DNA from: Podarcis pityusensis
Taxonomy: Eukaryota
Length of the DNA stretch: 64,000 nt
Assembly (NCBI GenBank): GCA_964106645.2
Contig: OZ067038.1
Direction: 5' to 3' (one strand)
Of the stretch, positions 28,901-64,000 are shown piece by piece. The translations under genes were made by a program, and so were the position numbers. Under the pieces are notes generated by a model that worked only from the letters and a program-made list of their open reading frames with translations, had not been told where the DNA came from and did no database searches. Numbering within the stretch: position 1 is the first letter of the stretch; each line of letters begins with the position of its first letter.

Positions 28901-29999
28901 GATGCTCCTTCCTCTGTTCTAGAAACATAGGTAAATGGTATGTGTACACACACACATATGTAATGTAAAACATTGATCTTCGGTTAATGGGTTGTAGTCT
29001 ACAAGTGGTTGACACCAGGTGTAACTACTGTACCAGTTACACCAATAGTTTTAAAGGGGAGAAGGGAGAATAAAAAAAGATAAAGAGAAGTGGCAAATCA
29101 CAGTGGTCCCCATGTTATAAGTTGTGACCGAACATGGCCCTGAGAAGTTTGAAGACTGCTGAGTAATAAAATTAAACTTTATACGAGGGGGAAACTTTTC
29201 AAGTTTGCAGTGGGCTAACTGTACCTAGGCCTATGTATGATGCAGCCAGTAGTACTTCCCATTTTTCATTGCCGTACCTAGATCCTGGCCCTGACGAGAT
29301 TTAGATTTCTAAAACTGGGTAAAATTGCTACTTTGCCCAAAACAAAACACTATTCTAGTTCCAAAGAATATTTCTGTGATGATCTTTCAGATTTTCACAT
29401 TAAAGGAATGTGTTGATCTTTGATGCCTTTGACCATGTTCAGTTTGAAGCAGTCTTCATCCATTTCAAATAATTACAAAAACTGTAATATCTCTTTGTGA
29501 TATTTTCTTTTTTTATTTAAACATTGAAGTCATACATTGTGTCTGACTAGTGCATGACCTAATCTGTGTCTTGCATCTCTGGTTCTCATGTTATTGTTGT
29601 TGCTATTATAACTGTATCTCTCTCTATAGCTTTTCATTCGTATGCCGCATAATCTTGGCAGCAGCAAAGTAATCTCTGTTTTAATCATATAATTAATCTA
29701 CAAGAAAATGTTGTTCTGCATCATCAAAAACTGATAAATATGTATTATAAAAGGGTGTGAGCCGTGGTGTTAAAGTAAATGGAACCTGCACACAATAACT
29801 TGATTAATCATTTTTCTCTCTTTGGTGAATCTTAAAATCGAGTTACTTTTGAAAGAATTTAACCTTGATAGAGAAAATTCTTCTGTAATATTAGTTAAAA
29901 TGCTGTAATAAATGTATTCTATGAGGTTGGATCAAGGGTTCCATAGGATTGTGGTGGGACACTCTGGAACTGGGTAAAGGCTTGCAAGATGAAAACAAT

Positions 30000-30660
30000 T
30001 ACAACAGTAGTCATAAGGAATAAATAGAACATCAGAAAATACACAACCAAACTGAACAATTTCCACATAAATCATAATAAGATTGAAAATAAAGATACAA
30101 AAAATAATATAAAAAGCACCAACAACAACCTCCTCCCCCACAACCAAAAACACTAATAAGCATCTGATTAGTAAGGGAATGAGCAGTCTATTTAATATTT
30201 TTAAAGTATTTTTTGTTGTGGTAATTAGGAACTTAAGAAGCCAAGATATAACGATACAGTACAGAAAATATTTTTCCAAATCTTAAATCAAAGATATTTT
30301 TAAACTGTAATTATTATCACTACCAGCTTTTTTGACATGCACTTGCATTTCTCAACCCCATACAAGTTTTCTTTAAGTATTGCAATTAGCTAAGCTTGAA
30401 TATAAAACTAATTGTGCTGAACTGATAAAGAATTTTGTGTTTAACTTCCACTTGATTTTTTAAAAAAATAAAATAAAAAATGTTTTAAAACAATTTATGG
30501 AGTTTTCAAGAAAATATTACATCATTCCAAGTAATTTGGTATATGTATAGCATACATTTCATGCTTTGTTCCCTCATATAAAATTATTCTTTAAAATCTG
30601 CAGGTAGTATTAGACAGCAGAAGTCAACTCATTTTCACGTTAACCAAAAATGACTCTATA
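30000..30660 (-). mobile_element. Probable degenerate L1-type LINE 3' end
   Basis: Minus strand has a broken FKIWKNIF-like ORF2 end followed by a T-rich 3' UTR-like tract; heavily decayed. Confidence 0.35.
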
Positions 30661-31140
30661 AATTGTTGAAACCAAACAAACTTTTTCCGGTTTGTTGTGA
30701 GAGCAATAGGAAAGGGGATTGCCACTCTGACAGGGAAATAAGGAGATAAGACAGAAATTTGAGTGAAAGTGGGTTGGATTTATTTAATGAAAGATATTCA
30801 GTGAGGTGTGGCTAGTGTAGGAAGTGTTGAAGAGAGTGGTGATGACAGTGCAGGATGCTTAAAAATATATAACTGTGGTGAGCCAACCCTGCAAAGGGAG
30901 GGGGTGGTATTGTTTATCTGCCCCTCCTCTTAAACCCCACCTTCTTAGATGAGCAGGAAGGCCTCCCTGATTAACTTTTCCAAGAGTCCCACAACACAGC
31001 ATGATACAAGTTGAACTCAAAAGTGCACCCTGCCTTGCTGGGGAGTCTCTCAGTCCTGAAGGCAAATCTTGAGATTATTAGACACTTTTAAGGTAGAAGG
31101 GGTAAATTACTACACCCTACCTCCTAAATGTGAGCAAATT

Positions 31141-31199
31141 AATTTATCAGCTCCCACTCACCAACCTATTAATTTAACAGCTCCCACTCACCAATCTAT
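31141..31199. repeat. 30-bp tandem duplication (2 copies)
   Basis: aatttatcagctcccactcaccaacctatt / aatttaacagctcccactcaccaatctatg; also at 53207-53265. Confidence 0.9.
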
Positions 31200-31522
31200 G
31201 TTTATCAAGATAGAGGACTTAAAACAAAACACGGACTAGGCAGAACACATTCAGTTTGTCAGCTGAGCCAACATGATAGCAGGCCAGGAACTCCTACTCA
31301 TCCCCACATGATGCCAAGCAGAGGAGCTTTCTACTCAAAGAGCTTTCACCTCTTAACAGCTATCCTGTTTGAATCTGAATATAGATAGATATAAAAAGAT
31401 ACAAGCTCCCTAAGGAATATTAGTTGCAAAAACTTTTGTCCGCTTCTAATCCTCTTTATGGGAAGCTACCCGAAACCTTTTTCACTAGTGAAGTGATGCT
31501 CAGAAATCTGAATTGCAATGTA

Positions 31523-31689
31523 CCATATTTTTCTGTCTATAAGATGCCCCCATGTATAAGATGCCCCTTATTTGGGGGGACTCAGATTTAAGAAAATGGG
31601 GTGAGACACTATCCATGTATAAGATGCCCCCTAATTTTTGACATCATTTTTTAGGGTGGGGAACTAGTCTAGTACATGGAAAAATATGG
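31523..31689. mobile_element. Tc1/mariner-type MITE
   Basis: TIR CCATATTTTTC...GAAAAATATGG with TA flanks; duplicate at 53589-53755. Confidence 0.8.
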
Positions 31690-32730
31690 TAATTGTCTCT
31701 GTTCAGTAAGTCTCCACATTTAATATTGCTTTCCTATAGCCAGTTACCTGACTGTAAGTAAGCCCCAGTGGGACTTAACTCTCAGTAGACACAAATAGCA
31801 CTTTTAGACTTCCATGGAAGAGTCATATATTGTTTCCAGCTCCTTCAAAAAATCAGTATGGAACCCAACCTGAAATATTTCATACAGTCTTATCAAGAAA
31901 CATTTTTTCTTCCTTCACTGAAGGTTTTGCCCACTTAGAAGACTTTGCACTCATCTTTATTATTATTTTTTTCTAAATTCAATGAAAATACTATAGTTAA
32001 AATGTGTAACATGTGTAGATTTAAGTCAGTCCTCAAGGAAGCCAGCATTCCCTTTCCAATTAAAATACGGCTCTGGAAGTGAGAGAGCATATTGAAGTGA
32101 ATTTTAGTTCCATATAATGAAAGCTATAATAATCTTTGTTTCTGAAAAGGAAGCCACAGTGATTAAATATGTAATCATTATAACAGCATGATCTTAAACA
32201 CTGAATAAAATACCAGCTGGACCCACCTCAGGTGCCTAATTCTTGTGGAGAACGAGAGCCCAGTGAACAATTTAATTTCGAAATTAATAGGTGGTTAGTA
32301 AGAAGCTAGGGACGAGAGCATATAAAGCATTGTACATCAACGAAAAGGTAGGGGGGAGATGCCCCAAGTTTGAGTCCATAATCTACGTAATTTAGGTATG
32401 AATGAATTTGTTCACACATAACAAAATGCAGATTATGGTATTCATAAGACTGTGGTAAAATAGGAATATAAACAAAAAAAATGGGTAAGACAAGGTTAGT
32501 TTTGCTTAATTAGACCAAATTCTTTTTTGAAAAAAGTAAAGCATTTCCCAAAGTGATGGTATTATAACTCACATTAGTGACAGCAAAAACAGATGTAGTT
32601 TTTGTTTCATAATCACTTAATAGAATAATAGAAAGCAAACTTACAGTCATTCCCTTTTAAAAGGGCAGACAGCTTAGTAAAATATTTGGAAATATTTTGT
32701 TGTTATTAATTGATGCTTCATACGGCAGTA

Positions 32731-32971
32731 CAGTGGTACCTGGGTTACACACACTTCAGGTTACATACGCTTCGGGTTACAGACTCCTCTAACCTAGAAA
32801 TATTACCTCAGGTTAAGAACTTTGCTTCAGGATGAGAACAGAAATCGTGCTCTGGCGACGTGGCGGAAGCGTGAGGCCCCATTAGCTAAAGTGGTGTTTC
32901 AGGTTAAGAACAGTTTCATGTTAAGAACAGACCTCCGGAATTAATTAAGTACGTAACCCGAGGTACCACTG
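32731..32971. mobile_element. Tigger/pogo-like MITE
   Basis: TIRs CAGTGGTACCT/AGGTACCACTG, TA TSD; duplicate at 54797-55037. Confidence 0.88.
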
Positions 32972-33193
32972 TATAGAATCAGGACAACATGGGGAGGTCT
33001 TTGCAGACCCCAGACTGTATTTGGACCTGAAAGACCAAAGAAAAGTGTGGGTGCATAGAGAGGAAGTTTTAAGCAAGCATAATTTGTGGTGTTGCACAGC
33101 ACCATAAATGATCATGGGGCACATCTGTAAAGGCATCAACCTTTAGCCTCATTCAGGGAGCTTGAAGCAACATAAAATAGCTTTTTAACTGTA

Positions 33194-33391
33194 CAGTGGT
33201 ACCTCAGGTTACAGATGCTTCAGGTTACAGATGCTGCTAACCCAGAAATAGTACCTCGGGTTAAGAACTTTGCTTCGGGATGAGAACAGAAATCGTGCAG
33301 CGGCAGCAAGAGGCCCAATTAGCTAAAGTGGTACGTCAGGTTAAGAACAGACCTCCAGAACGAATTAAGTTCTTAACCCAAGGTACCACTG
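33194..33391. mobile_element. Tigger/pogo-like MITE (internally deleted)
   Basis: Same TIRs and TA TSD; duplicate at 55260-55457. Confidence 0.88.
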
Positions 33392-33499
33392 TAGTCTTAC
33401 TGGCAGGTTTTTTGATCGTTGGAATTTTCTGGCTTTCGAAAAGGAAATATATTAAGATGCTATAGTCTTCAAACACAGGTGTTTCTGCATCTCAGACCA

Positions 33500-33500
<1 letters not shown>

Positions 33501-33541
<41 letters not shown>

Positions 33542-33542
33542 G
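33501..33542. repeat. (TG)10(AG)11 compound microsatellite
   Basis: Seen directly; same length at 55567-55608. Confidence 0.95.
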
Positions 33543-33816
33543 CAGCAGTGGTCAGCAGGGTGGCAGAGGAAGGGCAGCATTGCACAGCTGGCGTCCCAAC
33601 ACAGAAATCACAGCCCTTTGCTCTGCCCCTCTTGGTAAGCAGCAGCAGTGCTCGCCTTGGAAAGCCACATGGACAACACCACCCTACTTGTACTACCCTG
33701 CAAACAACTACTGTGTTGCAGGATGTGTTTGTGTCAGGGTGTGGAGGTGCATTCACTTCATGCAGCTACAATTGTGCTTCGAGACCCCCAACCACCCCCC
33801 AAAAATCAAGACACAG

Positions 33817-34575
33817 TGACATGGGATTTTAGTTTAAGTTACTGGGCAAAATTTAGGCCACAGCTTTATTGAATACAGAATGTGAGTGGTATTGGCTTAG
33901 GCATTGGAGGCATCATCCAAACTATATCAGACTCCCACCCACATCATGGGGAATCTGATAAAAGGGTGAAACACCGCCAGAGGAAGCCCCACCGATGTGA
34001 ACCGACTTGATTTCATCCCTTGTGCCCCCATGGGGTCCTGGTATGGCCCTAGCCTCTACCACTGGGTTTCGGACAAGACCCAGGCCAACTCCTGATTCCT
34101 TTAACAGAATACCCTTGAGCTTGGAGGGGCAGGTGATGGCTGCACCTCCCCTCCCCACACATTGCTGATCGAATGCCTAACCGCCAAACCTTACAATGTT
34201 GTGACGATTGTTACGTGGTAGGCGAAAACCAAACGGCTCTGCCAATCTGCCAGATGGAAAAATTCCTACCAGGCCCCCATTGCAAAACTGGCGACCAACA
34301 ACGTCCATAGTAAGGCCAACGCACCAGATTAAAGGGGTGAGTGGGTGCGTGATCCGTTGCGCAAAGGCAAAGAGGTCCAGCAAACATTGCACAGGGATTA
34401 AATAATGTTTCGTGGCCACCCTCCAAGCCAAGCCATTGGCTTTAGAGACCAAGTGACCACGAAACGACAAACCAGAGTGGTGCAGGGCATAGCCCTACCC
34501 ACACCAGGAGGTGGGAGATGCCTGGGGGCCTGCGCGCAATGCGTACCCTCCTTGAAGAGGATCTGATTTCCCATA
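33817..34575 (-). mobile_element. Unclassified GC/CpG-rich interspersed repeat (LTR-like?)
   Basis: Abrupt composition shift with about 20 CpGs; minus-strand AATAAA near 33866-33871; boundaries uncertain. Confidence 0.35.
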
Positions 34576-36391
34576 CTGGTTTAACATTCTATACCTCTTG
34601 ACAGGGCACTCTGGCACCTGTAGCTGTGTGAGGGGAAGAGCGGTCACTTAACTCTCATAACCCTTAACAAACTGCAGGTCCCACAGCTCTTTGTAGAAAG
34701 CCATGACTGTTAAAATGGAATTATAATGCTTTAAATCTGTGTATGTCCCTGTCCCCCGTCCCCACTCTTCTCAGGCTAGAAGCAGCAGGGCTTGCTCTTC
34801 GCTGTTTGCTATTACCTCCCAGGAAGCACAACCCACTCAGACTGTATCTACTAATAGGTATTTCATATTATATCCATTCTCTTTTAATGGAATGGAACTG
34901 AACATTACACAATCTTTAGGGTGTTCAGGCCTTCTAATAACTTGCCCATTTCAACTGTGTGGGGGTTCAGCGATGGCATCCTTCAACTGCCATTCTTTGG
35001 TCTCTCTCCTTCCCTGTCCAACAATCTGCCGTGGATAGGACAGATTGCTGTTGCCACAGGTCTGAGCTGATTGCTTGAGGAGGGCTTATGAAATTAGGCG
35101 AAGAGCCATTTGAAATTAGGCTGAGGGCTGCATGTGGCCCACCTCTGATCTAGGCCAATAAAAAATAAGTTGTCCCTTAAAGGTCTGGCAATACCATTTC
35201 ACAGAATAATTCCATACACCACAGTAAAGGGAAGTGTGTAACAAACTAGAAGCATGAATTCTTCAGTTTCTCACAGCGAAATAAATACCCAGTTGTCCAG
35301 TTTATATTATTTTTATCTGAAAGTTTTCTGTAGTTAATAGTTGTTGTTTTGTGGTAGTGGTTGTTTTTTTAGTAGCTTGGTTAAATTCTAAGCTTCATTG
35401 ACCTATCTGATTCCTTCCATTTTTCAGAAATTATTTCTTCTGGGCATATTCTTTTCTGAACATGGTTTACTGCCTGCTCAGACACACACTCCATTGCTTC
35501 TAATCAATTCTGACTATCCTTGTATGATATTTGTATGGAGCGCTGTCAGCTAAAAAGTAGCTGAAGCAGAAGACCTATTTCTTCACAATGGAATGCTAGA
35601 AAACTCATCCCTTTGACTCCCCAAATGCATTTGAAGGTAGACAAATACAGTACTGTACAATGGATTTTCAGTGATGCCTGCTACGGCATGCATACCTATC
35701 TGGTATATCAAAAGATTTTTAGCTGAAAATCTTCACCAAACTGAGTGGTGTGTCTGCACGACATGCACACATTAATTCACTCACACTGTAAACTGTTTTT
35801 TCTTCAGGGGGAAAAAATGGTCTGAGATTATGTTAGGTGAGTAAACATGTTTAGCTCTAGGTCAGGCATTGTAACAATAATAACATCAGCAAATTATTTC
35901 TAGCCCAGTCTCTGTCACGTATTCTCGCTAAGAAACTTGTTGGCAAACATGACCCTTTCTTACACTTCAAGAAACTGAACTCTGTTTGGCTAATTTGCAT
36001 TGTGTTGTCACGTGTTTCCCGCTTTCCTGAGTGGTGAGTAATTTACAGGGTTGGTGCTGTTTGAATTTGGCATCCTAACCTTTGGATGAGAATAGAGGCA
36101 GACTGACAATTTCTACTGTTGACCCACTTTGGAACCCTTTGGGGGAGGCAAAAGGGGGTTCAAATCTACTCACTATGTTCCCCATTTCCACATCTAGGCT
36201 ATTCTTAATGGTTGCTCTGGTGGTGGCTGCTGGTTGATAGACATCATTTGCTACTCTAAATTGCCTCTGTAAGTGACAGTACATTATCACATAGCTTCAG
36301 TCCCAAGGCTATTCTGGGGATAGTAGGGGAGCAAGAACCACCACTTCCCACCTGGAATGCCTTTCTGAGCAAGACTTGGTGCTGATGTAGC

Positions 36392-36935
36392 TGTCAAGAA
36401 TTCTTCTCAATATTGATCCAGAGCAGATTCCAATGTATAGTTAGCAGAGTAAAATAAATGTAGCACGTTGCAGAATTCCAAAAAAATAGACCAGAGGCAA
36501 TTAATATTTCATCCAGCAGAGCTTTACTGCTACTGAAGGCAAATGAGCATAATAGTCACAAATCCATACCTTCAGGATTGGCTCTGTCCATAAGAAATCC
36601 AGTTGCAGCAGTCTTAACTTAAACTTATGATAACTTACAATAGGACTAAAACCTTAACACTAAGCATACCAAGTACAGGACACACCACAAGGAAAGAGAG
36701 ATAGAAACTGAAACTCAGGCTGCTTCTGATCTATTATTGTAGTCAGCATGACTTTGAGTGAAAGAGATAACAGAACCAGTTTAAACCAGCTGTTCAGCTT
36801 CTCTGAAGGAATAACCCAAACATCAGGAACCTTCTGCCTGTTTCTAGGCAGAATATAAACTTGCTTGTCGGTAGAAACTTCCAGCTTGCACTAGCTTGTA
36901 TCACACAGAGAAGCTTCCAGAACCCTCTTGAGTCA
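36392..36935 (-). mobile_element. Possible solo LTR
   Basis: TGTCAAGA... / ...TCTTGAGTCA termini and LTR-like size; no TSD found. Confidence 0.3.
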
Positions 36936-36954
36936 ATAGAATAGGAAAGATCCT

Positions 36955-37048
36955 TGTTGTTGTTTAGTCGTTTAGTTGTGTCCGACTCTTCGTGACCCCA
37001 TGGACCAGAGCACGCCAGGCACTTCTTTCTTCCACTGCCTCCCGCAGT
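36955..37048 (-). mobile_element. BovB (RTE) LINE extreme 3' fragment
   Basis: Minus strand ends GGTCCATGGGGTCACGAAGAGTCGGACACAACTAAACGACTAAACAACAACA; 10-bp TSD GAAAGATCCT at 36945-36954 and 37049-37058; duplicate at 59021-59114. Confidence 0.85.
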
Positions 37049-38333
37049 GAAAGATCCTATTCTATTCTAAATAGGAGAGCTATATTTCAGCTAAGCCCTA
37101 GATGGGAGAGCAGTAGAGACTTGTCATTTCAAAAATATTTATGCTCTCTCTTTGTAGAAATCCAGTGGAATAGTGACACTTTCTCCAAGATCTGATGCAT
37201 CTCATTTCAGATTCCTCGCTATTCCCTAATTATTGGCAGCCATCAGCCAGCCATTGTGGGCTGTTAACTAGCATTCTGTCTCATAAAGGAATTGTAAGGC
37301 AGAAACCACAATAGCATAGTTTGCCAGTAAAGTTTAAAACTCTGCTGCTATATTATCTCTTCTCCCTGAAGACATAACCCAAGATAAACAACTTTACCTT
37401 CACTACTAGCCAGCCTAAGGATTTTATTTCTCCAGTTACTTTTATCCCTTTCTTTCTGTTTTGTTTTCTTTGCACATTTGCATGTGAAATGAGAAAACTT
37501 TGCATTAGCTTGGTGAACTAGCTCCTTGGGACATTTATACCTTGTACTTGGCACTGTGCTGTTGAAGTCTATAAACCATCCACATGATGAGCTATTCAAT
37601 GCATGTCTACCAATTTTAAGATTGCTTCTTAACATCTGTTCAGAATTTGTTCATCCTGATGGCCCAGACATCCTTTGTGCTTGGCTGAACATGGTAACTT
37701 ATGATTACTCCATTTATGCCAGTTAGAAATCTAAACAAGTGCATCAGTGTGCACTCTGGTTTGTTTTCCTTTATGAATATATTGAGTTTAACTTTTTGGT
37801 GCCTTTGGGGTTTCTGTCTGAAATGCAAGAAACTCTTTTAGACAACAGCTACAGCATCATCATATGGGAAGCAAACAAGTGTTCTCCCAAGTCTGTCAAC
37901 CTCCCCTCCAACTTTCTGTTATTACATTATTATCTATCACTTCAAGTTAACACTGGTTCTATATGTAAAAAGGCACTTTATTGCTAGATTAGATTAGGGT
38001 GCCCATATGTACCACTTTCCAGAGGTCAGCTGAAGTGCTTTCCAGTCCGAATCCGGTTTAAAGATGAAGACCTATATAAAAGGGGAGAGGAGATGCCTTG
38101 AAATTGCCCATCTGTACTCAGCATTCCCTGAGCAGGCACTCAGGCCCCACTATGATCACAATCTTCCCCACTATGGTGAGACATATTGTATATCACTTTA
38201 AATTATAGTCACGGTTTCTAAATTTGCATCTGTATATATAAATTAACTTTTTTCAGATCTGTATCCTCTTTGTCTTTTCTTCTTCTGTTCACCCTCTTCT
38301 AAGTGAACAGGGCAACTCTCAAAACCATCAAAT

Positions 38334-38699
38334 TGTTGAGATAAGATGGCGCCCGGCACACTTCCCCTGTGCCGATGGACGCTTGTGCCGATAGAAAAAA
38401 CTTGAGCTCTCTTTGAAGCTCTTAGCAGAGTACTGCAGCGGTAGAAAATGTTGCCTTGTGTGTGGATAATAAATCAGACTGAACGCAGGCTTCTTACTAA
38501 ACTCTAACAGCCTTTAATGAGAAGAAAAACATCATAAATCAGTCCGGCGAGAGAGCAGGCATCCTTCTCGCCTCTCAGCCAAAAACGAAAGGATAACTCA
38601 CACACAAAGTAAGATTCCCGTATGTGAACCAAACCACGCCTCAGAATGTGAGACGTCACACAGAACTGTTTAACCCTGTAAGTTCTGATTCTCCTCACA
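38334..38699 (-). repeat. Copia 3' LTR (366 bp, complete)
   Basis: Minus strand TGTGAGGAG...CTCAACA, directly after the PPT; 38509-38699 aligns to 42517-42695. Confidence 0.92.
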
Positions 38700-38742
38700 C
38701 CCCCTCTCGTCTCGCATCCTGAGGGAAAACTGTGAGTATAAC

Positions 38743-39828
38743 TCACCCCAAACACAGCCCTTCACAGAACTCCCCATGTCGCTGGAAGGTCAAGGGTTTG
38801 GTAAACCCATCAGATAGGTTCTCCCGGCTCGAACAATACTTGAGCCGTATCCAACCTGCTTGGACACTCTGACATACATTCTGGAAACGTATGTCCAAAT
38901 GCTTGGTTCTGGACTTGAACTGTCCAGATTCTGCCAACCTAAGACAAGGTTGATTGTCTCCCCAAACAGTTATGGGCAAGTAACAATCCCCACAGATCTC
39001 TTGGATCAAGCACCGGAAGAAGTCCAACTCCCTGCACAAATCCGACAACGCACTGAACTCAGCCTCAGTGGAAGAAAGTGCAATAAGACTTTGCTTCCGG
39101 GACTTCCACCCAACCAGGGATTCCCCGAACTTTACCACCAGTCCAGACACAGACTTCCTGTCCCCAAGAGATGCCCAATCGCTGTCACTCCAGCACGTAA
39201 GCCATGCGTCACCTTCAACTGACAACGCGAGGCAAAACTCTTTGGTATCCTGCAAATACCTCAACACCCTCTTGATGCCTTGCCAGGCATTCACACTGGG
39301 CTTTGTAGCCTCCCTGCTGAGCAGATTCACAGCAAACGCTATGTCTGGTCTGCTCCACTGAGAGAGATACAACAGACTCCCTAGCGCTGACTGAAACACC
39401 TCAGGGTTTTGGAACTCAGAACGCTCCCCAAGCTGACTGTCCTTCACGAAGTTGGTCTCCATGGGCGTTCTGACCCCTGCACAGTCAGACATCCGGAACT
39501 TCTCAAGCAACTGCTCAATCTTGCTTTTCTGACTGAGCAAGAAACTCCCGTTCTCAGACCTGTCTATCCTAACGCCTAGATAAACCTGAACGAAACCAAG
39601 GTTTTTGAGCTTAAACTTCTTACCAAGCTCTTTGGCAAAACCTTGCACCTGTCTACTTGTCTGTGCCACGTACAGAATATCATCTACGAACACCAGAATC
39701 GCTTCCTGTGTCTCTCCTGACCCCTTCAGGTACAGGCAACTGTCTGCAAGACTCTTCTGGAAACCCAAACTTTCCAGAGCTTCATTCAGGCACATGTTCC
39801 AATTTCTGGCTGACTGTTTCAAACCATA
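38743..39828 (-). pseudogene. Copia pol, RT C-terminal half plus RNase H
   Basis: YGLKQSARNW, ILVFVDDIL, SRPDIAFAV, WSDSDWA, SSTEAEF, DNQPC, RTKHLDIRF, DGFTKPL motifs. Confidence 0.95.
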
Positions 39829-39950
39829 CCAAGAACTAACTCAAGAACTTCAAGCTCATACCAAGAACTAACTTAGTTGGTCTTTAAGGTGCTACTGGAA
39901 GGATTTTTTTTATTTTGATTATGGCAGACCAACACGGCTACCTATCTGTA
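39829..39950 (+). mobile_element. 122-bp insertion, Penelope-like element terminal fragment
   Basis: 16-bp TSD ACTGTTTCAAACCATA (39813-39828 and 39951-39966); aagctcatacc...ttagttggtctttaaggtgctactgg...gcagaccaacacggctacc resembles reptilian Penelope termini from recall. Confidence 0.65.
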
Positions 39951-42516: not shown

Positions 42517-42695
42517 AGCCTTTAATGAGAAGAAAAACATCATAAATCAGTCCCGGCATTCTTCTCGCCTCTCAGCCAAAAACGAAAGGAAACTCACACA
42601 CAAAGAAAGATTCCCATATGTGAACCAAACCACGCCTGAGAATGTGAGACGTCACACAGAACTGTTTAACCCTGTAAGTTCTGATTCTCCTCACA
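42517..42695 (-). repeat. Copia 5' LTR remnant (179 bp)
   Basis: Aligns to 38509-38699 with about 4 substitutions and 2 indels; fused directly to gag. Confidence 0.9.
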
Positions 42696-42971
42696 CAAAT
42701 TTCCCATAAACTTCTTTTCTTGTTAATTCTACTTCCTGGAGATGAGACTCCCTGGTTTTTGACATTTGTATGTGTGTGTTTCCCATTGACTAAAAGGGAC
42801 AGCTACTGGTGGGCTTTTGCAAAGCTGTGATAGAACAATATAAGCTTGAGTCCAGAGCAGCCAGCCATGCTCCCCTGTCTCTGGGTTGTAGCTTCTCTAG
42901 TCAGTCTTGGTTGTCCTCTCTTGTTCCCCACCAACCCCTGCTCCTATGACATTCTTCTTCTGTCATCTCAC

Positions 42972-42999
42972 TGTGTGCGTGTGCATGTGTGTGTGTGTG

Positions 43000-43037: not shown

Positions 43038-43040
<3 letters not shown>

Positions 43041-44248: not shown

Positions 44249-44251
<3 letters not shown>

Positions 44252-50738: not shown

Positions 50739-51079
50739 AGCCATGTTCAAATATATAAAAGGATGTCACATAGAGGAGGGAGAAAGGTTGTTTTCTGCTG
50801 CTCCAGAGAAGCGGACACGGAGCAATGGATCCAAACTACAAGAAAGAAGATTCCACCTAAACATTAGGAAGAACTTCCTGACAGTAAGAGCTGTTCGACA
50901 GTGGAATTTGCTGCCAAGGAGTGTGGTGGAGTCTCCTTCTTTGGAGGTCTTTAAGCAGAGGCTTGACAACCATATGTCAGGAGTGCTCTGATGGTGTTTC
51001 CTGCTTGGCAGGGGGTTGGACTCGATGGCCCTTGTGGTCTCTTCCAACTCTATGATTCTATGATTCTATGATTCTATGA
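50739..51079 (+). mobile_element. Young CR1 LINE 3' fragment
   Basis: Uninterrupted ORF2 end (FKYIKGCHIEEGERLFS...FKQRLDNHMSGVL*), (ATTCTATG)n tail, possible TSD CCATGTT at 50741-50747 and 51081-51087. Confidence 0.93.
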
Positions 51080-51138
51080 ACCATGTTGTCCCTTCCCAAA
51101 GGCTGTTGAGAGGTTGAGAGCACATCTGCAGTAGAGAT

Positions 51139-54100
51139 AAAAAAGATAAAGAGAAGTGGCAAATCACAGTGGTCCCCATGTTATAAGTTGTGACCGAACA
51201 TGGCCCTGAGAAGTTTGAAGACTGCTGAGTAATAAAATTAAACTTTATACGAGGGGGAAACTTTTCAAGTTTGCAGTGGGCTAACTGTACCTAGGCCTAT
51301 GTATGATGCAGCCAGTAGTACTTCCCATTTTTCATTGCCGTACCTAGATCCTGGCCCTGACGAGATTTAGATTTCTAAAACTGGGTAAAATTGCTACTTT
51401 GCCCAAAACAAAACACTATTCTAGTTCCAAAGAATATTTCTGTGATGATCTTTCAGATTTTCACATTAAAGGAATGTGTTGATCTTTGATGCCTTTGACC
51501 ATGTTCAGTTTGAAGCAGTCTTCATCCATTTCAAATAATTACAAAAACTGTAATATCTCTTTGTGATATTTTCTTTTTTTATTTAAACATTGAAGTCATA
51601 CATTGTGTCTGACTAGTGCATGACCTAATCTGTGTCTTGCATCTCTGGTTCTCATGTTATTGTTGTTGCTATTATAACTGTATCTCTCTCTATAGCTTTT
51701 CATTCGTATGCCGCATAATCTTGGCAGCAGCAAAGTAATCTCTGTTTTAATCATATAATTAATCTACAAGAAAATGTTGTTCTGCATCATCAAAAACTGA
51801 TAAATATGTATTATAAAAGGGTGTGAGCCGTGGTGTTAAAGTAAATGGAACCTGCACACAATAACTTGATTAATCATTTTTCTCTCTTTGGTGAATCTTA
51901 AAATCGAGTTACTTTTGAAAGAATTTAACCTTGATAGAGAAAATTCTTCTGTAATATTAGTTAAAATGCTGTAATAAATGTATTCTATGAGGTTGGATCA
52001 AGGGTTCCATAGGATTGTGGTGGGACACTCTGGAACTGGGTAAAGGCTTGCAAGATGAAAACAATTACAACAGTAGTCATAAGGAATAAATAGAACATCA
52101 GAAAATACACAACCAAACTGAACAATTTCCACATAAATCATAATAAGATTGAAAATAAAGATACAAAAAATAATATAAAAAGCACCAACAACAACCTCCT
52201 CCCCCACAACCAAAAACACTAATAAGCATCTGATTAGTAAGGGAATGAGCAGTCTATTTAATATTTTTAAAGTATTTTTTGTTGTGGTAATTAGGAACTT
52301 AAGAAGCCAAGATATAACGATACAGTACAGAAAATATTTTTCCAAATCTTAAATCAAAGATATTTTTAAACTGTAATTATTATCACTACCAGCTTTTTTG
52401 ACATGCACTTGCATTTCTCAACCCCATACAAGTTTTCTTTAAGTATTGCAATTAGCTAAGCTTGAATATAAAACTAATTGTGCTGAACTGATAAAGAATT
52501 TTGTGTTTAACTTCCACTTGATTTTTTAAAAAAATAAAATAAAAAATGTTTTAAAACAATTTATGGAGTTTTCAAGAAAATATTACATCATTCCAAGTAA
52601 TTTGGTATATGTATAGCATACATTTCATGCTTTGTTCCCTCATATAAAATTATTCTTTAAAATCTGCAGGTAGTATTAGACAGCAGAAGTCAACTCATTT
52701 TCACGTTAACCAAAAATGACTCTATAAATTGTTGAAACCAAACAAACTTTTTCCGGTTTGTTGTGAGAGCAATAGGAAAGGGGATTGCCACTCTGACAGG
52801 GAAATAAGGAGATAAGACAGAAATTTGAGTGAAAGTGGGTTGGATTTATTTAATGAAAGATATTCAGTGAGGTGTGGCTAGTGTAGGAAGTGTTGAAGAG
52901 AGTGGTGATGACAGTGCAGGATGCTTAAAAATATATAACTGTGGTGAGCCAACCCTGCAAAGGGAGGGGGTGGTATTGTTTATCTGCCCCTCCTCTTAAA
53001 CCCCACCTTCTTAGATGAGCAGGAAGGCCTCCCTGATTAACTTTTCCAAGAGTCCCACAACACAGCATGATACAAGTTGAACTCAAAAGTGCACCCTGCC
53101 TTGCTGGGGAGTCTCTCAGTCCTGAAGGCAAATCTTGAGATTATTAGACACTTTTAAGGTAGAAGGGGTAAATTACTACACCCTACCTCCTAAATGTGAG
53201 CAAATTAATTTATCAGCTCCCACTCACCAACCTATTAATTTAACAGCTCCCACTCACCAATCTATGTTTATCAAGATAGAGGACTTAAAACAAAACACGG
53301 ACTAGGCAGAACACATTCAGTTTGTCAGCTGAGCCAACATGATAGCAGGCCAGGAACTCCTACTCATCCCCACATGATGCCAAGCAGAGGAGCTTTCTAC
53401 TCAAAGAGCTTTCACCTCTTAACAGCTATCCTGTTTGAATCTGAATATAGATAGATATAAAAAGATACAAGCTCCCTAAGGAATATTAGTTGCAAAAACT
53501 TTTGTCCGCTTCTAATCCTCTTTATGGGAAGCTACCCGAAACCTTTTTCACTAGTGAAGTGATGCTCAGAAATCTGAATTGCAATGTACCATATTTTTCT
53601 GTCTATAAGATGCCCCCATGTATAAGATGCCCCTTATTTGGGGGGACTCAGATTTAAGAAAATGGGGTGAGACACTATCCATGTATAAGATGCCCCCTAA
53701 TTTTTGACATCATTTTTTAGGGTGGGGAACTAGTCTAGTACATGGAAAAATATGGTAATTGTCTCTGTTCAGTAAGTCTCCACATTTAATATTGCTTTCC
53801 TATAGCCAGTTACCTGACTGTAAGTAAGCCCCAGTGGGACTTAACTCTCAGTAGACACAAATAGCACTTTTAGACTTCCATGGAAGAGTCATATATTGTT
53901 TCCAGCTCCTTCAAAAAATCAGTATGGAACCCAACCTGAAATATTTCATACAGTCTTATCAAGAAACATTTTTTCTTCCTTCACTGAAGGTTTTGCCCAC
54001 TTAGAAGACTTTGCACTCATCTTTATTATTATTTTTTTCTAAATTCAATGAAAATACTATAGTTAAAATGTGTAACATGTGTAGATTTAAGTCAGTCCTC

Positions 54101-55565
54101 AAGGAAGCCAGCATTCCCTTTCCAATTAAAATACGGCTCTGGAAGTGAGAGAGCATATTGAAGTGAATTTTAGTTCCATATAATGAAAGCTATAATAATC
54201 TTTGTTTCTGAAAAGGAAGCCACAGTGATTAAATATGTAATCATTATAACAGCATGATCTTAAACACTGAATAAAATACCAGCTGGACCCACCTCAGGTG
54301 CCTAATTCTTGTGGAGAACGAGAGCCCAGTGAACAATTTAATTTCGAAATTAATAGGTGGTTAGTAAGAAGCTAGGGACGAGAGCATATAAAGCATTGTA
54401 CATCAACGAAAAGGTAGGGGGGAGATGCCCCAAGTTTGAGTCCATAATCTACGTAATTTAGGTATGAATGAATTTGTTCACACATAACAAAATGCAGATT
54501 ATGGTATTCATAAGACTGTGGTAAAATAGGAATATAAACAAAAAAAATGGGTAAGACAAGGTTAGTTTTGCTTAATTAGACCAAATTCTTTTTTGAAAAA
54601 AGTAAAGCATTTCCCAAAGTGATGGTATTATAACTCACATTAGTGACAGCAAAAACAGATGTAGTTTTTGTTTCATAATCACTTAATAGAATAATAGAAA
54701 GCAAACTTACAGTCATTCCCTTTTAAAAGGGCAGACAGCTTAGTAAAATATTTGGAAATATTTTGTTGTTATTAATTGATGCTTCATACGGCAGTACAGT
54801 GGTACCTGGGTTACACACACTTCAGGTTACATACGCTTCGGGTTACAGACTCCTCTAACCTAGAAATATTACCTCAGGTTAAGAACTTTGCTTCAGGATG
54901 AGAACAGAAATCGTGCTCTGGCGACGTGGCGGAAGCGTGAGGCCCCATTAGCTAAAGTGGTGTTTCAGGTTAAGAACAGTTTCATGTTAAGAACAGACCT
55001 CCGGAATTAATTAAGTACGTAACCCGAGGTACCACTGTATAGAATCAGGACAACATGGGGAGGTCTTTGCAGACCCCAGACTGTATTTGGACCTGAAAGA
55101 CCAAAGAAAAGTGTGGGTGCATAGAGAGGAAGTTTTAAGCAAGCATAATTTGTGGTGTTGCACAGCACCATAAATGATCATGGGGCACATCTGTAAAGGC
55201 ATCAACCTTTAGCCTCATTCAGGGAGCTTGAAGCAACATAAAATAGCTTTTTAACTGTACAGTGGTACCTCAGGTTACAGATGCTTCAGGTTACAGATGC
55301 TGCTAACCCAGAAATAGTACCTCGGGTTAAGAACTTTGCTTCGGGATGAGAACAGAAATCGTGCAGCGGCAGCAAGAGGCCCAATTAGCTAAAGTGGTAC
55401 GTCAGGTTAAGAACAGACCTCCAGAACGAATTAAGTTCTTAACCCAAGGTACCACTGTAGTCTTACTGGCAGGTTTTTTGATCGTTGGAATTTTCTGGCT
55501 TTCGAAAAGGAAATATATTAAGATGCTATAGTCTTCAAACACAGGTGTTTCTGCATCTCAGACCA

Positions 55566-55607
<42 letters not shown>

Positions 55608-58600
55608 GCAGCAGTGGTCAGCAGGGTGGCAGAGGAAGGGCAGCATTGCACAGCTGGCGTCCCAACACAGAAATCACAGCCCTTTGCTCTGCCCCTCTTG
55701 GTAAGCAGCAGCAGTGCTCGCCTTGGAAAGCCACATGGACAACACCACCCTACTTGTACTACCCTGCAAACAACTACTGTGTTGCAGGATGTGTTTGTGT
55801 CAGGGTGTGGAGGTGCATTCACTTCATGCAGCTACAATTGTGCTTCGAGACCCCCAACCACCCCCCAAAAATCAAGACACAGTGACATGGGATTTTAGTT
55901 TAAGTTACTGGGCAAAATTTAGGCCACAGCTTTATTGAATACAGAATGTGAGTGGTATTGGCTTAGGCATTGGAGGCATCATCCAAACTATATCAGACTC
56001 CCACCCACATCATGGGGAATCTGATAAAAGGGTGAAACACCGCCAGAGGAAGCCCCACCGATGTGAACCGACTTGATTTCATCCCTTGTGCCCCCATGGG
56101 GTCCTGGTATGGCCCTAGCCTCTACCACTGGGTTTCGGACAAGACCCAGGCCAACTCCTGATTCCTTTAACAGAATACCCTTGAGCTTGGAGGGGCAGGT
56201 GATGGCTGCACCTCCCCTCCCCACACATTGCTGATCGAATGCCTAACCGCCAAACCTTACAATGTTGTGACGATTGTTACGTGGTAGGCGAAAACCAAAC
56301 GGCTCTGCCAATCTGCCAGATGGAAAAATTCCTACCAGGCCCCCATTGCAAAACTGGCGACCAACAACGTCCATAGTAAGGCCAACGCACCAGATTAAAG
56401 GGGTGAGTGGGTGCGTGATCCGTTGCGCAAAGGCAAAGAGGTCCAGCAAACATTGCACAGGGATTAAATAATGTTTCGTGGCCACCCTCCAAGCCAAGCC
56501 ATTGGCTTTAGAGACCAAGTGACCACGAAACGACAAACCAGAGTGGTGCAGGGCATAGCCCTACCCACACCAGGAGGTGGGAGATGCCTGGGGGCCTGCG
56601 CGCAATGCGTACCCTCCTTGAAGAGGATCTGATTTCCCATACTGGTTTAACATTCTATACCTCTTGACAGGGCACTCTGGCACCTGTAGCTGTGTGAGGG
56701 GAAGAGCGGTCACTTAACTCTCATAACCCTTAACAAACTGCAGGTCCCACAGCTCTTTGTAGAAAGCCATGACTGTTAAAATGGAATTATAATGCTTTAA
56801 ATCTGTGTATGTCCCTGTCCCCCGTCCCCACTCTTCTCAGGCTAGAAGCAGCAGGGCTTGCTCTTCGCTGTTTGCTATTACCTCCCAGGAAGCACAACCC
56901 ACTCAGACTGTATCTACTAATAGGTATTTCATATTATATCCATTCTCTTTTAATGGAATGGAACTGAACATTACACAATCTTTAGGGTGTTCAGGCCTTC
57001 TAATAACTTGCCCATTTCAACTGTGTGGGGGTTCAGCGATGGCATCCTTCAACTGCCATTCTTTGGTCTCTCTCCTTCCCTGTCCAACAATCTGCCGTGG
57101 ATAGGACAGATTGCTGTTGCCACAGGTCTGAGCTGATTGCTTGAGGAGGGCTTATGAAATTAGGCGAAGAGCCATTTGAAATTAGGCTGAGGGCTGCATG
57201 TGGCCCACCTCTGATCTAGGCCAATAAAAAATAAGTTGTCCCTTAAAGGTCTGGCAATACCATTTCACAGAATAATTCCATACACCACAGTAAAGGGAAG
57301 TGTGTAACAAACTAGAAGCATGAATTCTTCAGTTTCTCACAGCGAAATAAATACCCAGTTGTCCAGTTTATATTATTTTTATCTGAAAGTTTTCTGTAGT
57401 TAATAGTTGTTGTTTTGTGGTAGTGGTTGTTTTTTTAGTAGCTTGGTTAAATTCTAAGCTTCATTGACCTATCTGATTCCTTCCATTTTTCAGAAATTAT
57501 TTCTTCTGGGCATATTCTTTTCTGAACATGGTTTACTGCCTGCTCAGACACACACTCCATTGCTTCTAATCAATTCTGACTATCCTTGTATGATATTTGT
57601 ATGGAGCGCTGTCAGCTAAAAAGTAGCTGAAGCAGAAGACCTATTTCTTCACAATGGAATGCTAGAAAACTCATCCCTTTGACTCCCCAAATGCATTTGA
57701 AGGTAGACAAATACAGTACTGTACAATGGATTTTCAGTGATGCCTGCTACGGCATGCATACCTATCTGGTATATCAAAAGATTTTTAGCTGAAAATCTTC
57801 ACCAAACTGAGTGGTGTGTCTGCACGACATGCACACATTAATTCACTCACACTGTAAACTGTTTTTTCTTCAGGGGGAAAAAATGGTCTGAGATTATGTT
57901 AGGTGAGTAAACATGTTTAGCTCTAGGTCAGGCATTGTAACAATAATAACATCAGCAAATTATTTCTAGCCCAGTCTCTGTCACGTATTCTCGCTAAGAA
58001 ACTTGTTGGCAAACATGACCCTTTCTTACACTTCAAGAAACTGAACTCTGTTTGGCTAATTTGCATTGTGTTGTCACGTGTTTCCCGCTTTCCTGAGTGG
58101 TGAGTAATTTACAGGGTTGGTGCTGTTTGAATTTGGCATCCTAACCTTTGGATGAGAATAGAGGCAGACTGACAATTTCTACTGTTGACCCACTTTGGAA
58201 CCCTTTGGGGGAGGCAAAAGGGGGTTCAAATCTACTCACTATGTTCCCCATTTCCACATCTAGGCTATTCTTAATGGTTGCTCTGGTGGTGGCTGCTGGT
58301 TGATAGACATCATTTGCTACTCTAAATTGCCTCTGTAAGTGACAGTACATTATCACATAGCTTCAGTCCCAAGGCTATTCTGGGGATAGTAGGGGAGCAA
58401 GAACCACCACTTCCCACCTGGAATGCCTTTCTGAGCAAGACTTGGTGCTGATGTAGCTGTCAAGAATTCTTCTCAATATTGATCCAGAGCAGATTCCAAT
58501 GTATAGTTAGCAGAGTAAAATAAATGTAGCACGTTGCAGAATTCCAAAAAAATAGACCAGAGGCAATTAATATTTCATCCAGCAGAGCTTTACTGCTACT

Positions 58601-61600
58601 GAAGGCAAATGAGCATAATAGTCACAAATCCATACCTTCAGGATTGGCTCTGTCCATAAGAAATCCAGTTGCAGCAGTCTTAACTTAAACTTATGATAAC
58701 TTACAATAGGACTAAAACCTTAACACTAAGCATACCAAGTACAGGACACACCACAAGGAAAGAGAGATAGAAACTGAAACTCAGGCTGCTTCTGATCTAT
58801 TATTGTAGTCAGCATGACTTTGAGTGAAAGAGATAACAGAACCAGTTTAAACCAGCTGTTCAGCTTCTCTGAAGGAATAACCCAAACATCAGGAACCTTC
58901 TGCCTGTTTCTAGGCAGAATATAAACTTGCTTGTCGGTAGAAACTTCCAGCTTGCACTAGCTTGTATCACACAGAGAAGCTTCCAGAACCCTCTTGAGTC
59001 AATAGAATAGGAAAGATCCTTGTTGTTGTTTAGTCGTTTAGTTGTGTCCGACTCTTCGTGACCCCATGGACCAGAGCACGCCAGGCACTTCTTTCTTCCA
59101 CTGCCTCCCGCAGTGAAAGATCCTATTCTATTCTAAATAGGAGAGCTATATTTCAGCTAAGCCCTAGATGGGAGAGCAGTAGAGACTTGTCATTTCAAAA
59201 ATATTTATGCTCTCTCTTTGTAGAAATCCAGTGGAATAGTGACACTTTCTCCAAGATCTGATGCATCTCATTTCAGATTCCTCGCTATTCCCTAATTATT
59301 GGCAGCCATCAGCCAGCCATTGTGGGCTGTTAACTAGCATTCTGTCTCATAAAGGAATTGTAAGGCAGAAACCACAATAGCATAGTTTGCCAGTAAAGTT
59401 TAAAACTCTGCTGCTATATTATCTCTTCTCCCTGAAGACATAACCCAAGATAAACAACTTTACCTTCACTACTAGCCAGCCTAAGGATTTTATTTCTCCA
59501 GTTACTTTTATCCCTTTCTTTCTGTTTTGTTTTCTTTGCACATTTGCATGTGAAATGAGAAAACTTTGCATTAGCTTGGTGAACTAGCTCCTTGGGACAT
59601 TTATACCTTGTACTTGGCACTGTGCTGTTGAAGTCTATAAACCATCCACATGATGAGCTATTCAATGCATGTCTACCAATTTTAAGATTGCTTCTTAACA
59701 TCTGTTCAGAATTTGTTCATCCTGATGGCCCAGACATCCTTTGTGCTTGGCTGAACATGGTAACTTATGATTACTCCATTTATGCCAGTTAGAAATCTAA
59801 ACAAGTGCATCAGTGTGCACTCTGGTTTGTTTTCCTTTATGAATATATTGAGTTTAACTTTTTGGTGCCTTTGGGGTTTCTGTCTGAAATGCAAGAAACT
59901 CTTTTAGACAACAGCTACAGCATCATCATATGGGAAGCAAACAAGTGTTCTCCCAAGTCTGTCAACCTCCCCTCCAACTTTCTGTTATTACATTATTATC
60001 TATCACTTCAAGTTAACACTGGTTCTATATGTAAAAAGGCACTTTATTGCTAGATTAGATTAGGGTGCCCATATGTACCACTTTCCAGAGGTCAGCTGAA
60101 GTGCTTTCCAGTCCGAATCCGGTTTAAAGATGAAGACCTATATAAAAGGGGAGAGGAGATGCCTTGAAATTGCCCATCTGTACTCAGCATTCCCTGAGCA
60201 GGCACTCAGGCCCCACTATGATCACAATCTTCCCCACTATGGTGAGACATATTGTATATCACTTTAAATTATAGTCACGGTTTCTAAATTTGCATCTGTA
60301 TATATAAATTAACTTTTTTCAGATCTGTATCCTCTTTGTCTTTTCTTCTTCTGTTCACCCTCTTCTAAGTGAACAGGGCAACTCTCAAAACCATCAAATT
60401 GTTGAGATAAGATGGCGCCCGGCACACTTCCCCTGTGCCGATGGACGCTTGTGCCGATAGAAAAAACTTGAGCTCTCTTTGAAGCTCTTAGCAGAGTACT
60501 GCAGCGGTAGAAAATGTTGCCTTGTGTGTGGATAATAAATCAGACTGAACGCAGGCTTCTTACTAAACTCTAACAGCCTTTAATGAGAAGAAAAACATCA
60601 TAAATCAGTCCGGCGAGAGAGCAGGCATCCTTCTCGCCTCTCAGCCAAAAACGAAAGGATAACTCACACACAAAGTAAGATTCCCGTATGTGAACCAAAC
60701 CACGCCTCAGAATGTGAGACGTCACACAGAACTGTTTAACCCTGTAAGTTCTGATTCTCCTCACACCCCCTCTCGTCTCGCATCCTGAGGGAAAACTGTG
60801 AGTATAACTCACCCCAAACACAGCCCTTCACAGAACTCCCCATGTCGCTGGAAGGTCAAGGGTTTGGTAAACCCATCAGATAGGTTCTCCCGGCTCGAAC
60901 AATACTTGAGCCGTATCCAACCTGCTTGGACACTCTGACATACATTCTGGAAACGTATGTCCAAATGCTTGGTTCTGGACTTGAACTGTCCAGATTCTGC
61001 CAACCTAAGACAAGGTTGATTGTCTCCCCAAACAGTTATGGGCAAGTAACAATCCCCACAGATCTCTTGGATCAAGCACCGGAAGAAGTCCAACTCCCTG
61101 CACAAATCCGACAACGCACTGAACTCAGCCTCAGTGGAAGAAAGTGCAATAAGACTTTGCTTCCGGGACTTCCACCCAACCAGGGATTCCCCGAACTTTA
61201 CCACCAGTCCAGACACAGACTTCCTGTCCCCAAGAGATGCCCAATCGCTGTCACTCCAGCACGTAAGCCATGCGTCACCTTCAACTGACAACGCGAGGCA
61301 AAACTCTTTGGTATCCTGCAAATACCTCAACACCCTCTTGATGCCTTGCCAGGCATTCACACTGGGCTTTGTAGCCTCCCTGCTGAGCAGATTCACAGCA
61401 AACGCTATGTCTGGTCTGCTCCACTGAGAGAGATACAACAGACTCCCTAGCGCTGACTGAAACACCTCAGGGTTTTGGAACTCAGAACGCTCCCCAAGCT
61501 GACTGTCCTTCACGAAGTTGGTCTCCATGGGCGTTCTGACCCCTGCACAGTCAGACATCCGGAACTTCTCAAGCAACTGCTCAATCTTGCTTTTCTGACT

Positions 61601-64000
61601 GAGCAAGAAACTCCCGTTCTCAGACCTGTCTATCCTAACGCCTAGATAAACCTGAACGAAACCAAGGTTTTTGAGCTTAAACTTCTTACCAAGCTCTTTG
61701 GCAAAACCTTGCACCTGTCTACTTGTCTGTGCCACGTACAGAATATCATCTACGAACACCAGAATCGCTTCCTGTGTCTCTCCTGACCCCTTCAGGTACA
61801 GGCAACTGTCTGCAAGACTCTTCTGGAAACCCAAACTTTCCAGAGCTTCATTCAGGCACATGTTCCAATTTCTGGCTGACTGTTTCAAACCATACCAAGA
61901 ACTAACTCAAGAACTTCAAGCTCATACCAAGAACTAACTTAGTTGGTCTTTAAGGTGCTACTGGAAGGATTTTTTTTATTTTGATTATGGCAGACCAACA
62001 CGGCTACCTATCTGTAACTGTTTCAAACCATAAATTGACTTGTGCAGCTTCCACACAACACCTGGCTCATTGCCCTCAAACCCTGGAGGAGGTAACATGT
62101 ACATATCCTCCTTCAGATCCGAGTTCAAATAAGCCACATCCACATCAAAGTGGTGCACTTGGTGCCCTCTTTGAGCAGCTACTGCTAAAAACACGCACAG
62201 AGTCTCACTCCGGGAAGTAGGAGCATACACTTTGGTGTAATGCAGCCCCCTTCTCTGCGTGAACCCTCTGGCTACAAGCCTCGCCTTGTACTGAGGTTCT
62301 CCAGACGTTGTGGGCTTAATCCTGTAAACCCAACGACAGCTCACGGCCTGCTTGCCCTCTGGCAGCTTCGTGGTGGAGAACACACCTAAGGACCTCATTG
62401 AGTTCAACTCCTTTCCCATTGCCTCTTGCCATTTCCTGGCTTCCGCTTCAGGCAACTGTTGAACCTCCTCAAAACTCTCTGGTTCGCACTGCGCTAAACC
62501 AACCCACACGCTGGTGACCTCAAACCTCTCAGGTGGTACCCCCTTTGTAGTGCGTGTGGAACGTCTGAGCACTGTCTCAGGTGCTCCCTCTGACCCACTG
62601 GGGCCAGCAAGTGTGTCCTTGTTATCAGAAGACTCCCCCTCTGACTTACTGCGTCTTCTGGCCTTCTGCACTTGACTAACGGGAGACGAAGGCTCACTTT
62701 TGGGCTCTCTTTTAACAACCTGTGGAGATGCCCCTCCCTGTTCTTGACCCTGGTCAGAGACCTGGTCCTCATCAACAGGTTCAGCTTCTAACTCTCCCTC
62801 CTCAGCAGAATCAGACAGACACTCTGAGAGGACGGCAGGATTCGCATGGATCCTTGACCAACCACTCTGCTCACAGAACTCATCACTTCTGCTGACTAGA
62901 ATCCTGGACTGATCGCCTTCTGGATAGGCAAACCTCCACCTTTTTGTCCCAGGCTCGTACCCACAAAAGATCATTTTCCGGGACCTTGGGTCACCTTTCT
63001 TGCGTTGAGCCTTTGGCACAAGCACCCAAGCTTCGCAACCAAACACACGGAAGAAATGCACCTTGGGCTTCTTCCGCTGCAGCAGAAAATAGGGTGTGTC
63101 TCCTACAACAGAGCTATAGGACCTGTTCAAAGTGAAGCTGGCAGCTTTCCAAGCTTCGGCCCAAAAGCTCTGAGGCAAACCAGCATCAAACAGTAGAGCG
63201 TCAGCTGCCTCAGCTAGCGTTCTGTTCCTGCGCTCCGCTACGCCATTCTCCTGAGAAGAAAAAGCAACCGTCAACCTGTGACTTATCCCCTCCTGGCGGA
63301 AAAAACTCTGCAGAGCAGACCCGGTGAACTCTCCGCCTCGGTCGCTCTGAAAGCTCTGCACCTTGGTGGAAAACTGTAGTTCCACCGCCGCAACCCAGTC
63401 TTTGATCAGTTGCGCCGCCTCGCTTTTCTGTTTCAGCGAGAAGATCCAGCCGTTCCTCGAAAAATCATCTGTCAGCGTGAGCACATACCTGGCTCCGCCC
63501 AGACTCGGCATGGGTCCACAAAGGTCTGTATGCACTAGCTCAAAAGGCCTTGTGGTTACCCTCTCCAATCTGGGATAACTGCACCTTTTTATCTTTGCTC
63601 TTTTGCATGCCCTACAATCCAAGAATTTATCACATGCTTTCATCTTGCAACCCTCAGTGCATTCTGGCAACTTCTGGATATATTTCCAACAGCTATGCGA
63701 CATTCTCCTGTGCCACAAGCGAGCACGCGAATCATGTGTGGGAACGTTAGCACACCGCGCCTGTGCTGTCTCAGCGTCCCCCTTACCCTCCAGAGGTGTC
63801 TCCAGAACAAAGAGGTTGTTCTGACATGCAACATTGGCCAGTTGTTTCCCACCCCTGGAAATAGAACAGACATCATTTTCAAAGCAAACCTTATAACCCT
63901 CCTTTACAAGAGCAGATACAGATAAAAGACAACACTTCATTCCTGGACAACGTAGACTTCCAGCTCTGCCTGTAAAAAAGAAACAAACACATTGCCAACA
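51139..64000 (+). repeat. Segmental duplication, copy 2 (runs off the window end)
   Basis: Matches 29073-41934 at constant offset 22,066. Confidence 0.97.
60400..64000 (-). mobile_element. Ty1/Copia retrotransposon, copy 2 (part of the duplication, cut by the window end)
   Basis: 3' LTR 60400-60765, RT/RH ORF 60809-61888, same 122-bp insertion 61895-62016, IN/RT ORF 61985-63940, same frameshift and same flanks as copy 1. Confidence 0.95.

Follow-up and report, generated by a model that had tools for sequence, protein, structure and literature searches.

Background

Tandem duplications that depend on polymerase theta have been described in brc-1/brd-1 and tnsl-1 mutants of C. elegans and in Arabidopsis tonsoku (PMC7368036, PMC13031629). 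Their size classes are reported as mostly 10-20 kb and as a median of about 25 kb (PMC7368036, PMC13031629). In one of these studies, the templates of junction insertions were assigned from insertions of 5 bases or more (PMC7368036). For joining by SD-MMEJ, three criteria are set out in PMC5728401: a repeated motif of at least 4 bases, a distance of at most 30 bases, and a primer plus microhomology of at least 1 base. Adjacent identical sequences can also be produced by the assembly itself. According to PMC9516828, such false duplications can be recognised by a gap or by unsupported sequence that separates the copies, by haploid depth and by allelic differences.

Here we describe a duplicated segment in a window of 64,000 nucleotides (the whole stretch of DNA). 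The contig that carries it is the largest in a genome of 1.515 Gb. The original prediction, which was made from the letters of the window, left two options, a very recent tandem duplication or a false duplication in the assembly. We found that the locus is likely a real, young and polymorphic tandem duplication without a detected host gene, that is, an ordinary copy number variant of a well-known kind.

Sequence of the duplicated copies

An exact comparison at an offset of 22,066 showed that 29073-41934 equals 51139-64000 without a break. All of the 12,862 bases were identical (12,862/12,862), with no mismatches and no gaps. This bears out the expectation of a perfect direct duplication of at least 12.9 kb that continues to the end of the window. 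When the neighbouring genome stretches were added, the identity reached the ends of the two copies that are given in Table 1. The duplicated unit is 22,064 bases long and had no differences over its comparable bases; the remaining 146 positions are N in copy 1. The unit had been predicted as 29073-51138, with the second copy ending near 73204. Both ends have to be corrected slightly: the real end is 73202, and the bases at 51137-51138 belong to neither parental end.

The two copies are arranged head to tail with one novel junction. We searched a unique 3.4-kb piece of the unit against the whole genome. Its only full-length matches were these two copies, and this search found no third copy or haplotig. 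No N was found at the junction in the comparison of the copies. The N run within copy 1 has no counterpart in copy 2, where 67526-67671 is not N, and the sequences to its left and right stay in register. It therefore behaves as a letter-for-letter mask, not as an assembly gap or a copied gap. An identical N gap at 67526-67671 had been proposed as a sign of an artefact. It is not there, and the N run says nothing about whether the duplication is an artefact.

Table 1. Features of the duplicated locus, in window coordinates.
Feature	Position	Strand	Basis or remark
Copy 1 of the duplicated unit, 22,064 bp	29073..51136	+	matches copy 2 at 21,918/21,918 comparable bases
(GT)10(GA)11 microsatellite	33500..33541	+	equal length in both copies
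Broken Ty1/Copia LTR retrotransposon	38509..42696 (second copy 60575-64762)	-	Pfam RVT_2, rve, SH3_retrovirus, gag_pre-integrs
N run, 146 bases, copy 1 only	45460..45605	.	register kept on both sides
Young 5'-truncated LINE, 3' end	50739..51079	+	many contigs carry copies at 98-100%
Two inserted bases AT at the head-to-tail junction	51137..51138	+	X19 contig 51107-52131, 0 differences; junction 34-mer occurs once in the genome
AGATAAA, likely template of the junction insertion	51144..51150 (29078-29084 in copy 1)	+	longest motif among 16 dinucleotides
Copy 2 of the duplicated unit	51139..64000, onward to window-equivalent 73202 (G000:C1:99707202)	+	exact comparison

The junction in public sequencing runs

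Four of 24 listed public DNA sequencing runs (X19, X1, X2 and X3), all as Logan contigs and not as raw reads, were aligned on 47900-52450. This region takes in the junction and neither of the outer boundaries. X19 and X1 share one species label (organism A), and X2 carries another label. The junction was bridged in one of the four runs, X19, whose label is that of the species of the assembly. Contig 16 of X19 agreed with the assembly at 1025 of 1025 letters, at a depth of 28.6. Of its letters, 32 lie to the left of 51139, and its start falls exactly 30 bases (k-1) ahead of 51136. This start is as predicted by a branch in the 31-mer graph, where the unit end leads either to the junction or to the right flank. 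Logan drops 31-mers seen once and keeps each 31-mer once (PMC12424806), so the junction must have been present in at least two reads of X19. The junction exists in the DNA of X19, outside the assembly, and the contig that bridges it exactly supports the option of a very recent tandem duplication.

The other runs gave a different picture. Contig 7 of X1 and contig 23 of X2 both started at 51139, with 209 further letters of other sequence, a length that reaches 28864, just past the left-flank repeat. The contigs of X2 and X3 continued for 167-168 letters past the unit end (51136). X3 had no coverage of the junction and gives no evidence either way. From the lengths and the depth sums, we infer that the loose letters of X1, X2 and X3 are flank. 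When the contig depths were summed in the junction bin, the remainders were 3, 0 and 0 for X1, X2 and X3. The remainder was 649 for X19, as much as a single additional branch of 30 bases would contribute at a depth of about 21.6. X19 has the junction, and in X1 and X2 the unit start is preceded by different sequence, as long as would be expected of the left flank in a single-copy allele. Therefore, the duplication is polymorphic and the single-copy arrangement occurs in other animals (X1 and X2), with the flank letters assigned from lengths and depth. In X1, which carries the single-copy allele, we also observed a 14-base A-rich insertion at 51230, 92 bases inside the unit start.

Contig 16 of X19 crosses the unit start unbroken, although a left-flank path, had it been kept in the graph, would have interrupted it there. 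We explain the missing break by Minia dropping the short (239-base) left-flank path beside the repeat. Presumably the removal of such short paths is a default of that program. The X19/X1 depth ratio in the unit was 1.17, a weak gain, or 1.21 (1.12-1.41) when normalised on repeat bins, bearing in mind that contig depth is not the same as copy number. The latter ratio lies between the values for two and three copies; the value for three copies is 1.5. Taking 21.6 as the depth of two copies, one would expect a depth of 32 for three, and the depth of the X19 unit was 27-31. The library type of X19 is not on record. Its independence is limited by the possibility that it came from the source animal of the assembly.

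Near the end of the unit, X19 has a haplotype of its own. Its dominant sequence at 49230-50738 was unlike the assembly at nine sites, in seven separate bubbles, and the LINE was absent. It matched the assembly at 47900-48424 and 51107-52131. Contig 13 of X19 aligned at 49385-50738 and had 58 additional unaligned letters. This is the distance from 51079 to 51136, so that without the LINE the contig would end at 51136. If two assembly-type copies stood against a single different allele, a bubble would go to the minor path in 4-8% of cases (150-base reads assumed). Because the minor path seldom wins bubbles, X19 has another haplotype at 49230-50738, in no fewer copies than the assembly type. X19 is probably not the assembled animal. 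This other haplotype is a hint of either later recombination or assembly collapse. It is most simply read as the result of a single crossover, later than the duplication, in which copy 2 and a single-copy chromosome took part. If the recombination rate is assumed to be 1-2 cM/Mb, several thousand generations would pass for about one such crossover.

Breakpoints and joining

The left breakpoint reads GGGAGAATA before and AAAAAAGATAAAG after the break, and the right breakpoint reads GTAGAG before and CTGCC after it. The junction reads GTAGAG AT AAAAAAGATAAAG. In this exact register, no bases are common to both parental breakpoints and two bases are inserted. A simple microhomology-mediated join has shared bases in register and no insertion; here, none were shared at shift 0. 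The sole parental match was GAG, of 3 bases, at a shift of -4, and its use then needs two separate 1-base homopolymer losses. Microhomology had been noticed at the junction from the letters alone. This holds only in part. The likeness that was quoted for it (AAAAAAG) lies mostly inside the duplicated unit, and the proposed microhomology-mediated mechanism has to be corrected, since in the true register the ends have no base in common and two bases were inserted.

The inserted bases have a candidate source nearby. The motif AG-AT-AAA, which spans the junction at 51135-51141, is repeated by AGATAAA 7 bases away. Among the 16 possible 2-base insertions, AT gives the longest repeated motif, and all three of the SD-MMEJ features described in PMC5728401 were found at this junction. 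It seems likely that the inserted AT was templated from AGATAAA, a motif that was found after the fact and in A-rich sequence. As a control, we surveyed random junctions. A motif of 7 bases or more was reached by 125 of 2,745 (4.6%), and 1,337 of the 2,745 reached the 4-base criterion. An insertion of 2 bases is too short for a reliable template; PMC7368036 used insertions of 5 bases or more.

If the duplication is real, another joining route is possible, though we regard it with some doubt. One form of it is classical NHEJ with two untemplated bases. The background of 4.6% for the 7-base motif, which is higher in A-rich sequence, leaves room for this form, but AT is the best-templated of the 16 dinucleotides. 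Other forms are GAG annealing, or a blunt join at 29070, together with slips in the A run. GAG is indeed common to both ends at the 4-base shift, but its two separate 1-base losses must both fall within 10 bases. The blunt join at 29070 needs just one lost A. Against these forms, the alignments of X1 and X2 begin exactly at 51139, a start that is also consistent with a longer A run as the normal allele.

Longer homology was not found at the breakpoints. Among the 70 longest matches in a self-comparison of 124 kb, no pair of direct repeats lay across 29072 and 73203. The repeats nearest to the breakpoints stop about 220 and 57 bases short of them, and these repeats were not listed as alike. Non-allelic homologous recombination was rejected because these 70 matches contained no homologous direct repeats at the breakpoints. 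A duplication made by a transposon was also rejected, as no element ends at either breakpoint. An extrachromosomal circle seems unlikely at the observed depth.

Repeats and coding potential

The microsatellite that had been reported as (TG)10(AG)11 is present as (GT)10(GA)11. A (CA)16 and a (TA)17 microsatellite are likewise unchanged in length between the copies. In the Copia element, pol is split over three frames. The LTRs at 38509-38700 and 42517-42696 are 91.1% alike, and the claim that they differ from each other thus holds. Members of this family elsewhere in the genome are 94-98% alike. Many of the family's best copies are on one contig, C19: among the 31 further matches listed for the query from 1443 onward, 13 are located there. 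As a guess, this enrichment might reflect a non-recombining sex chromosome. About 120 bases of the element in the window (query 1321-1442) were left unaligned by the other copies.

The LINE stops about 57 bases short of the unit end. We take it to be of the CR1 type from its TTCTATGA tail. It is present in the assembly and in X1, and apparently absent from the contigs of X19, X2 and X3. The insertion appears to be polymorphic. Its 5' end, AGCCATGTT, resembles the target, AACCATGTT. The unit also carries older short repeats. To the left of the unit, an inverted pair at 20946-21406 and 25081-25531 (about 460 bases, 92% alike, 3.7 kb apart) possibly represents the terminal repeats of a transposon or two copies of one element. 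A Gypsy-type (chromodomain) LTR retrotransposon of 5,619 bp was found in the neighbouring stretch L014 (L014:3185-8803), about 11-17 kb left of the window. It has identical 619-bp LTRs, an open gag-pol frame of 1,623 aa and 23 other listed copies at 99-100% identity. Judged from these sequences, its family has expanded very recently.

We searched for host genes with Pfam. There are 98 stop-to-stop frames of at least 62 aa in the unit. Of these, 69 were searched, the others being 24 overlaps with Copia in other frames and five frames that cross the N run, and the only matches were three Copia frames. All 170 frames of 38-61 aa in the unit gave six weak matches, every one below the curated cut-offs. 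In the flanks, 158 of 225 frames of at least 58 aa gave one reverse-transcriptase fragment and one sub-threshold match. A 281-aa frame in the neighbouring stretch L011 was considered as a host gene and rejected, because it is repetitive: 39 further copies at 98-99% were listed. Such a search is insensitive to short exons, to exons without a Pfam domain and to the 146 masked bases. An Rfam search of 124 kb gave one weak tRNA-like match, outside the unit (L011:7567-7625, 30.4 bits), which is probably the head of a SINE. No CpG island was found outside Copia in 1-51000 of the window. As no host gene was found in the unit, the duplication is probably neutral.

Discussion

We consider it quite probable that this locus arose by a recent head-to-tail duplication of 22,064 bp, in which the sister chromatid was copied again after a fork break and the ends were joined with a likely templated 2-base insertion. 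A replication fork would have broken, and 22 kb would have been copied a second time from the sister chromatid. The 3' end, terminating in AG, may then have primed on a nearby AG followed by ATAAA, been extended by AT(AAA) and paired again within the A run. That the joining step was of the SD-MMEJ or polymerase theta type is an interpretation that we favour slightly. Between the assembly and conspecific runs there are about 2.5-2.8 differing sites per kb. Over the unit, this corresponds to about 55 expected differences; none were seen. Since two random alleles would differ at that many sites, both copies would derive from one chromatid. X19 would be another animal, with the duplication on one chromosome, which has since recombined with a single-copy allele. 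With the reptile mean mutation rate of 1.17e-8 per site (PMC9995274), the 95% upper bound on the age is 5,849 generations (3,802-12,816 across the rate interval). If the identity in the assembly is faithful, the duplication would be younger than about 6,000 generations.

It is also conceivable, though unlikely, that the junction is real and the perfect identity was made by the assembler. The true copies would then differ, either because the event is older or because one copy came from the homologous chromosome, and one collapsed consensus would have been emitted twice, with X19 as the source animal. In favour of this reading, the unit is longer than many long reads, and the three dinucleotide microsatellites are unchanged. 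X19 has the junction, yet its dominant haplotype at 49230-50738 is unlike both copies (nine sites and the LINE). However, a collapse should emit the majority haplotype, and the majority haplotype of X19 is not that of the assembly. If X19 were the source and had two assembly-type copies, a minor allele that wins a bubble in 4-8% of cases would not be expected to win at seven separate bubbles. In addition, the 341-base LINE adjoins the junction and the right flank, and polishing would not easily have made it.

A false duplication, in which overlapping contigs or haplotypes were joined unmerged or a library chimera arose and each chromosome has one copy, is very improbable: the zero divergence and the depth gain of X19, which is not clear-cut, would suit it, and a chimera would be visible twice if X19 and the assembly came from one amplified library, but the junction has no gap, the N run was not duplicated, the copies do not represent two alleles (at 0.25%, about 55 differences would be expected, and 0 were seen), the junction is found letter for letter in X19 contigs, and the hallmarks named in PMC9516828 (a gap or unsupported sequence between the copies) are absent, so that the second option of the original prediction is now unlikely. 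For this locus, the artefact question is thereby largely settled, and it appears that long-read assemblies of vertebrates can contain a perfect duplicate of 22 kb that is genuine. It also seems that public contig graphs can show a real duplicate through one contig that spans the junction.

Returning to the recent duplication from one chromatid, a further reading has somewhat less than even support from us. The 22-kb duplication would be still segregating and would represent the first step of paralogue divergence, with the end of one copy already swapped in another animal. The copies would have been born identical a few thousand generations ago, and the swap, with a single-copy allele, would have brought in nine SNPs and the presence or absence of the LINE. 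If this is true, it is standing allelic variation, and not new mutation, through which the copies diverge, and the locus preserves a natural record, open to dating, of a polymerase-theta-type duplication in the germ line of a wild reptile. In a wider sense, the locus would be one data point on the rate and the junction signature of tandem duplications in the germ lines of non-model vertebrates. It could further be used to study the speed at which duplicated chromosomes recombine with single-copy alleles.

A limited search of the literature on tandem-duplication polymorphism in lizards found no such locus, which is no proof of its absence from print. Compared with the false duplications of vertebrate assemblies described in PMC9516828, the locus is similar in being an adjacent duplicate on one scaffold and of about long-read size. 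It differs in having no gap, no allelic differences and a junction that a sequencing run supports. A better likeness is the true allele-specific tandem duplication, which the same source presents as a counter-example.

Like the SD-MMEJ junctions of PMC5728401, the junction combines a primer (AG), an insertion (AT) and a microhomology (AAA), with a direct repeat within 30 bases. However, those criteria were built on induced breaks in Drosophila, and about half of the random junctions in our control reach the 4-base threshold. The locus shares with the theta-dependent products of worms and Arabidopsis (PMC7368036, PMC13031629) a head-to-tail arrangement, a size of 22 kb that fits their classes, a short insertion that matches the flank, and an origin of both copies from one chromosome. 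It differs from them as a natural variant in a wild-type vertebrate with an insertion of only two bases and with a putative dependence on theta.
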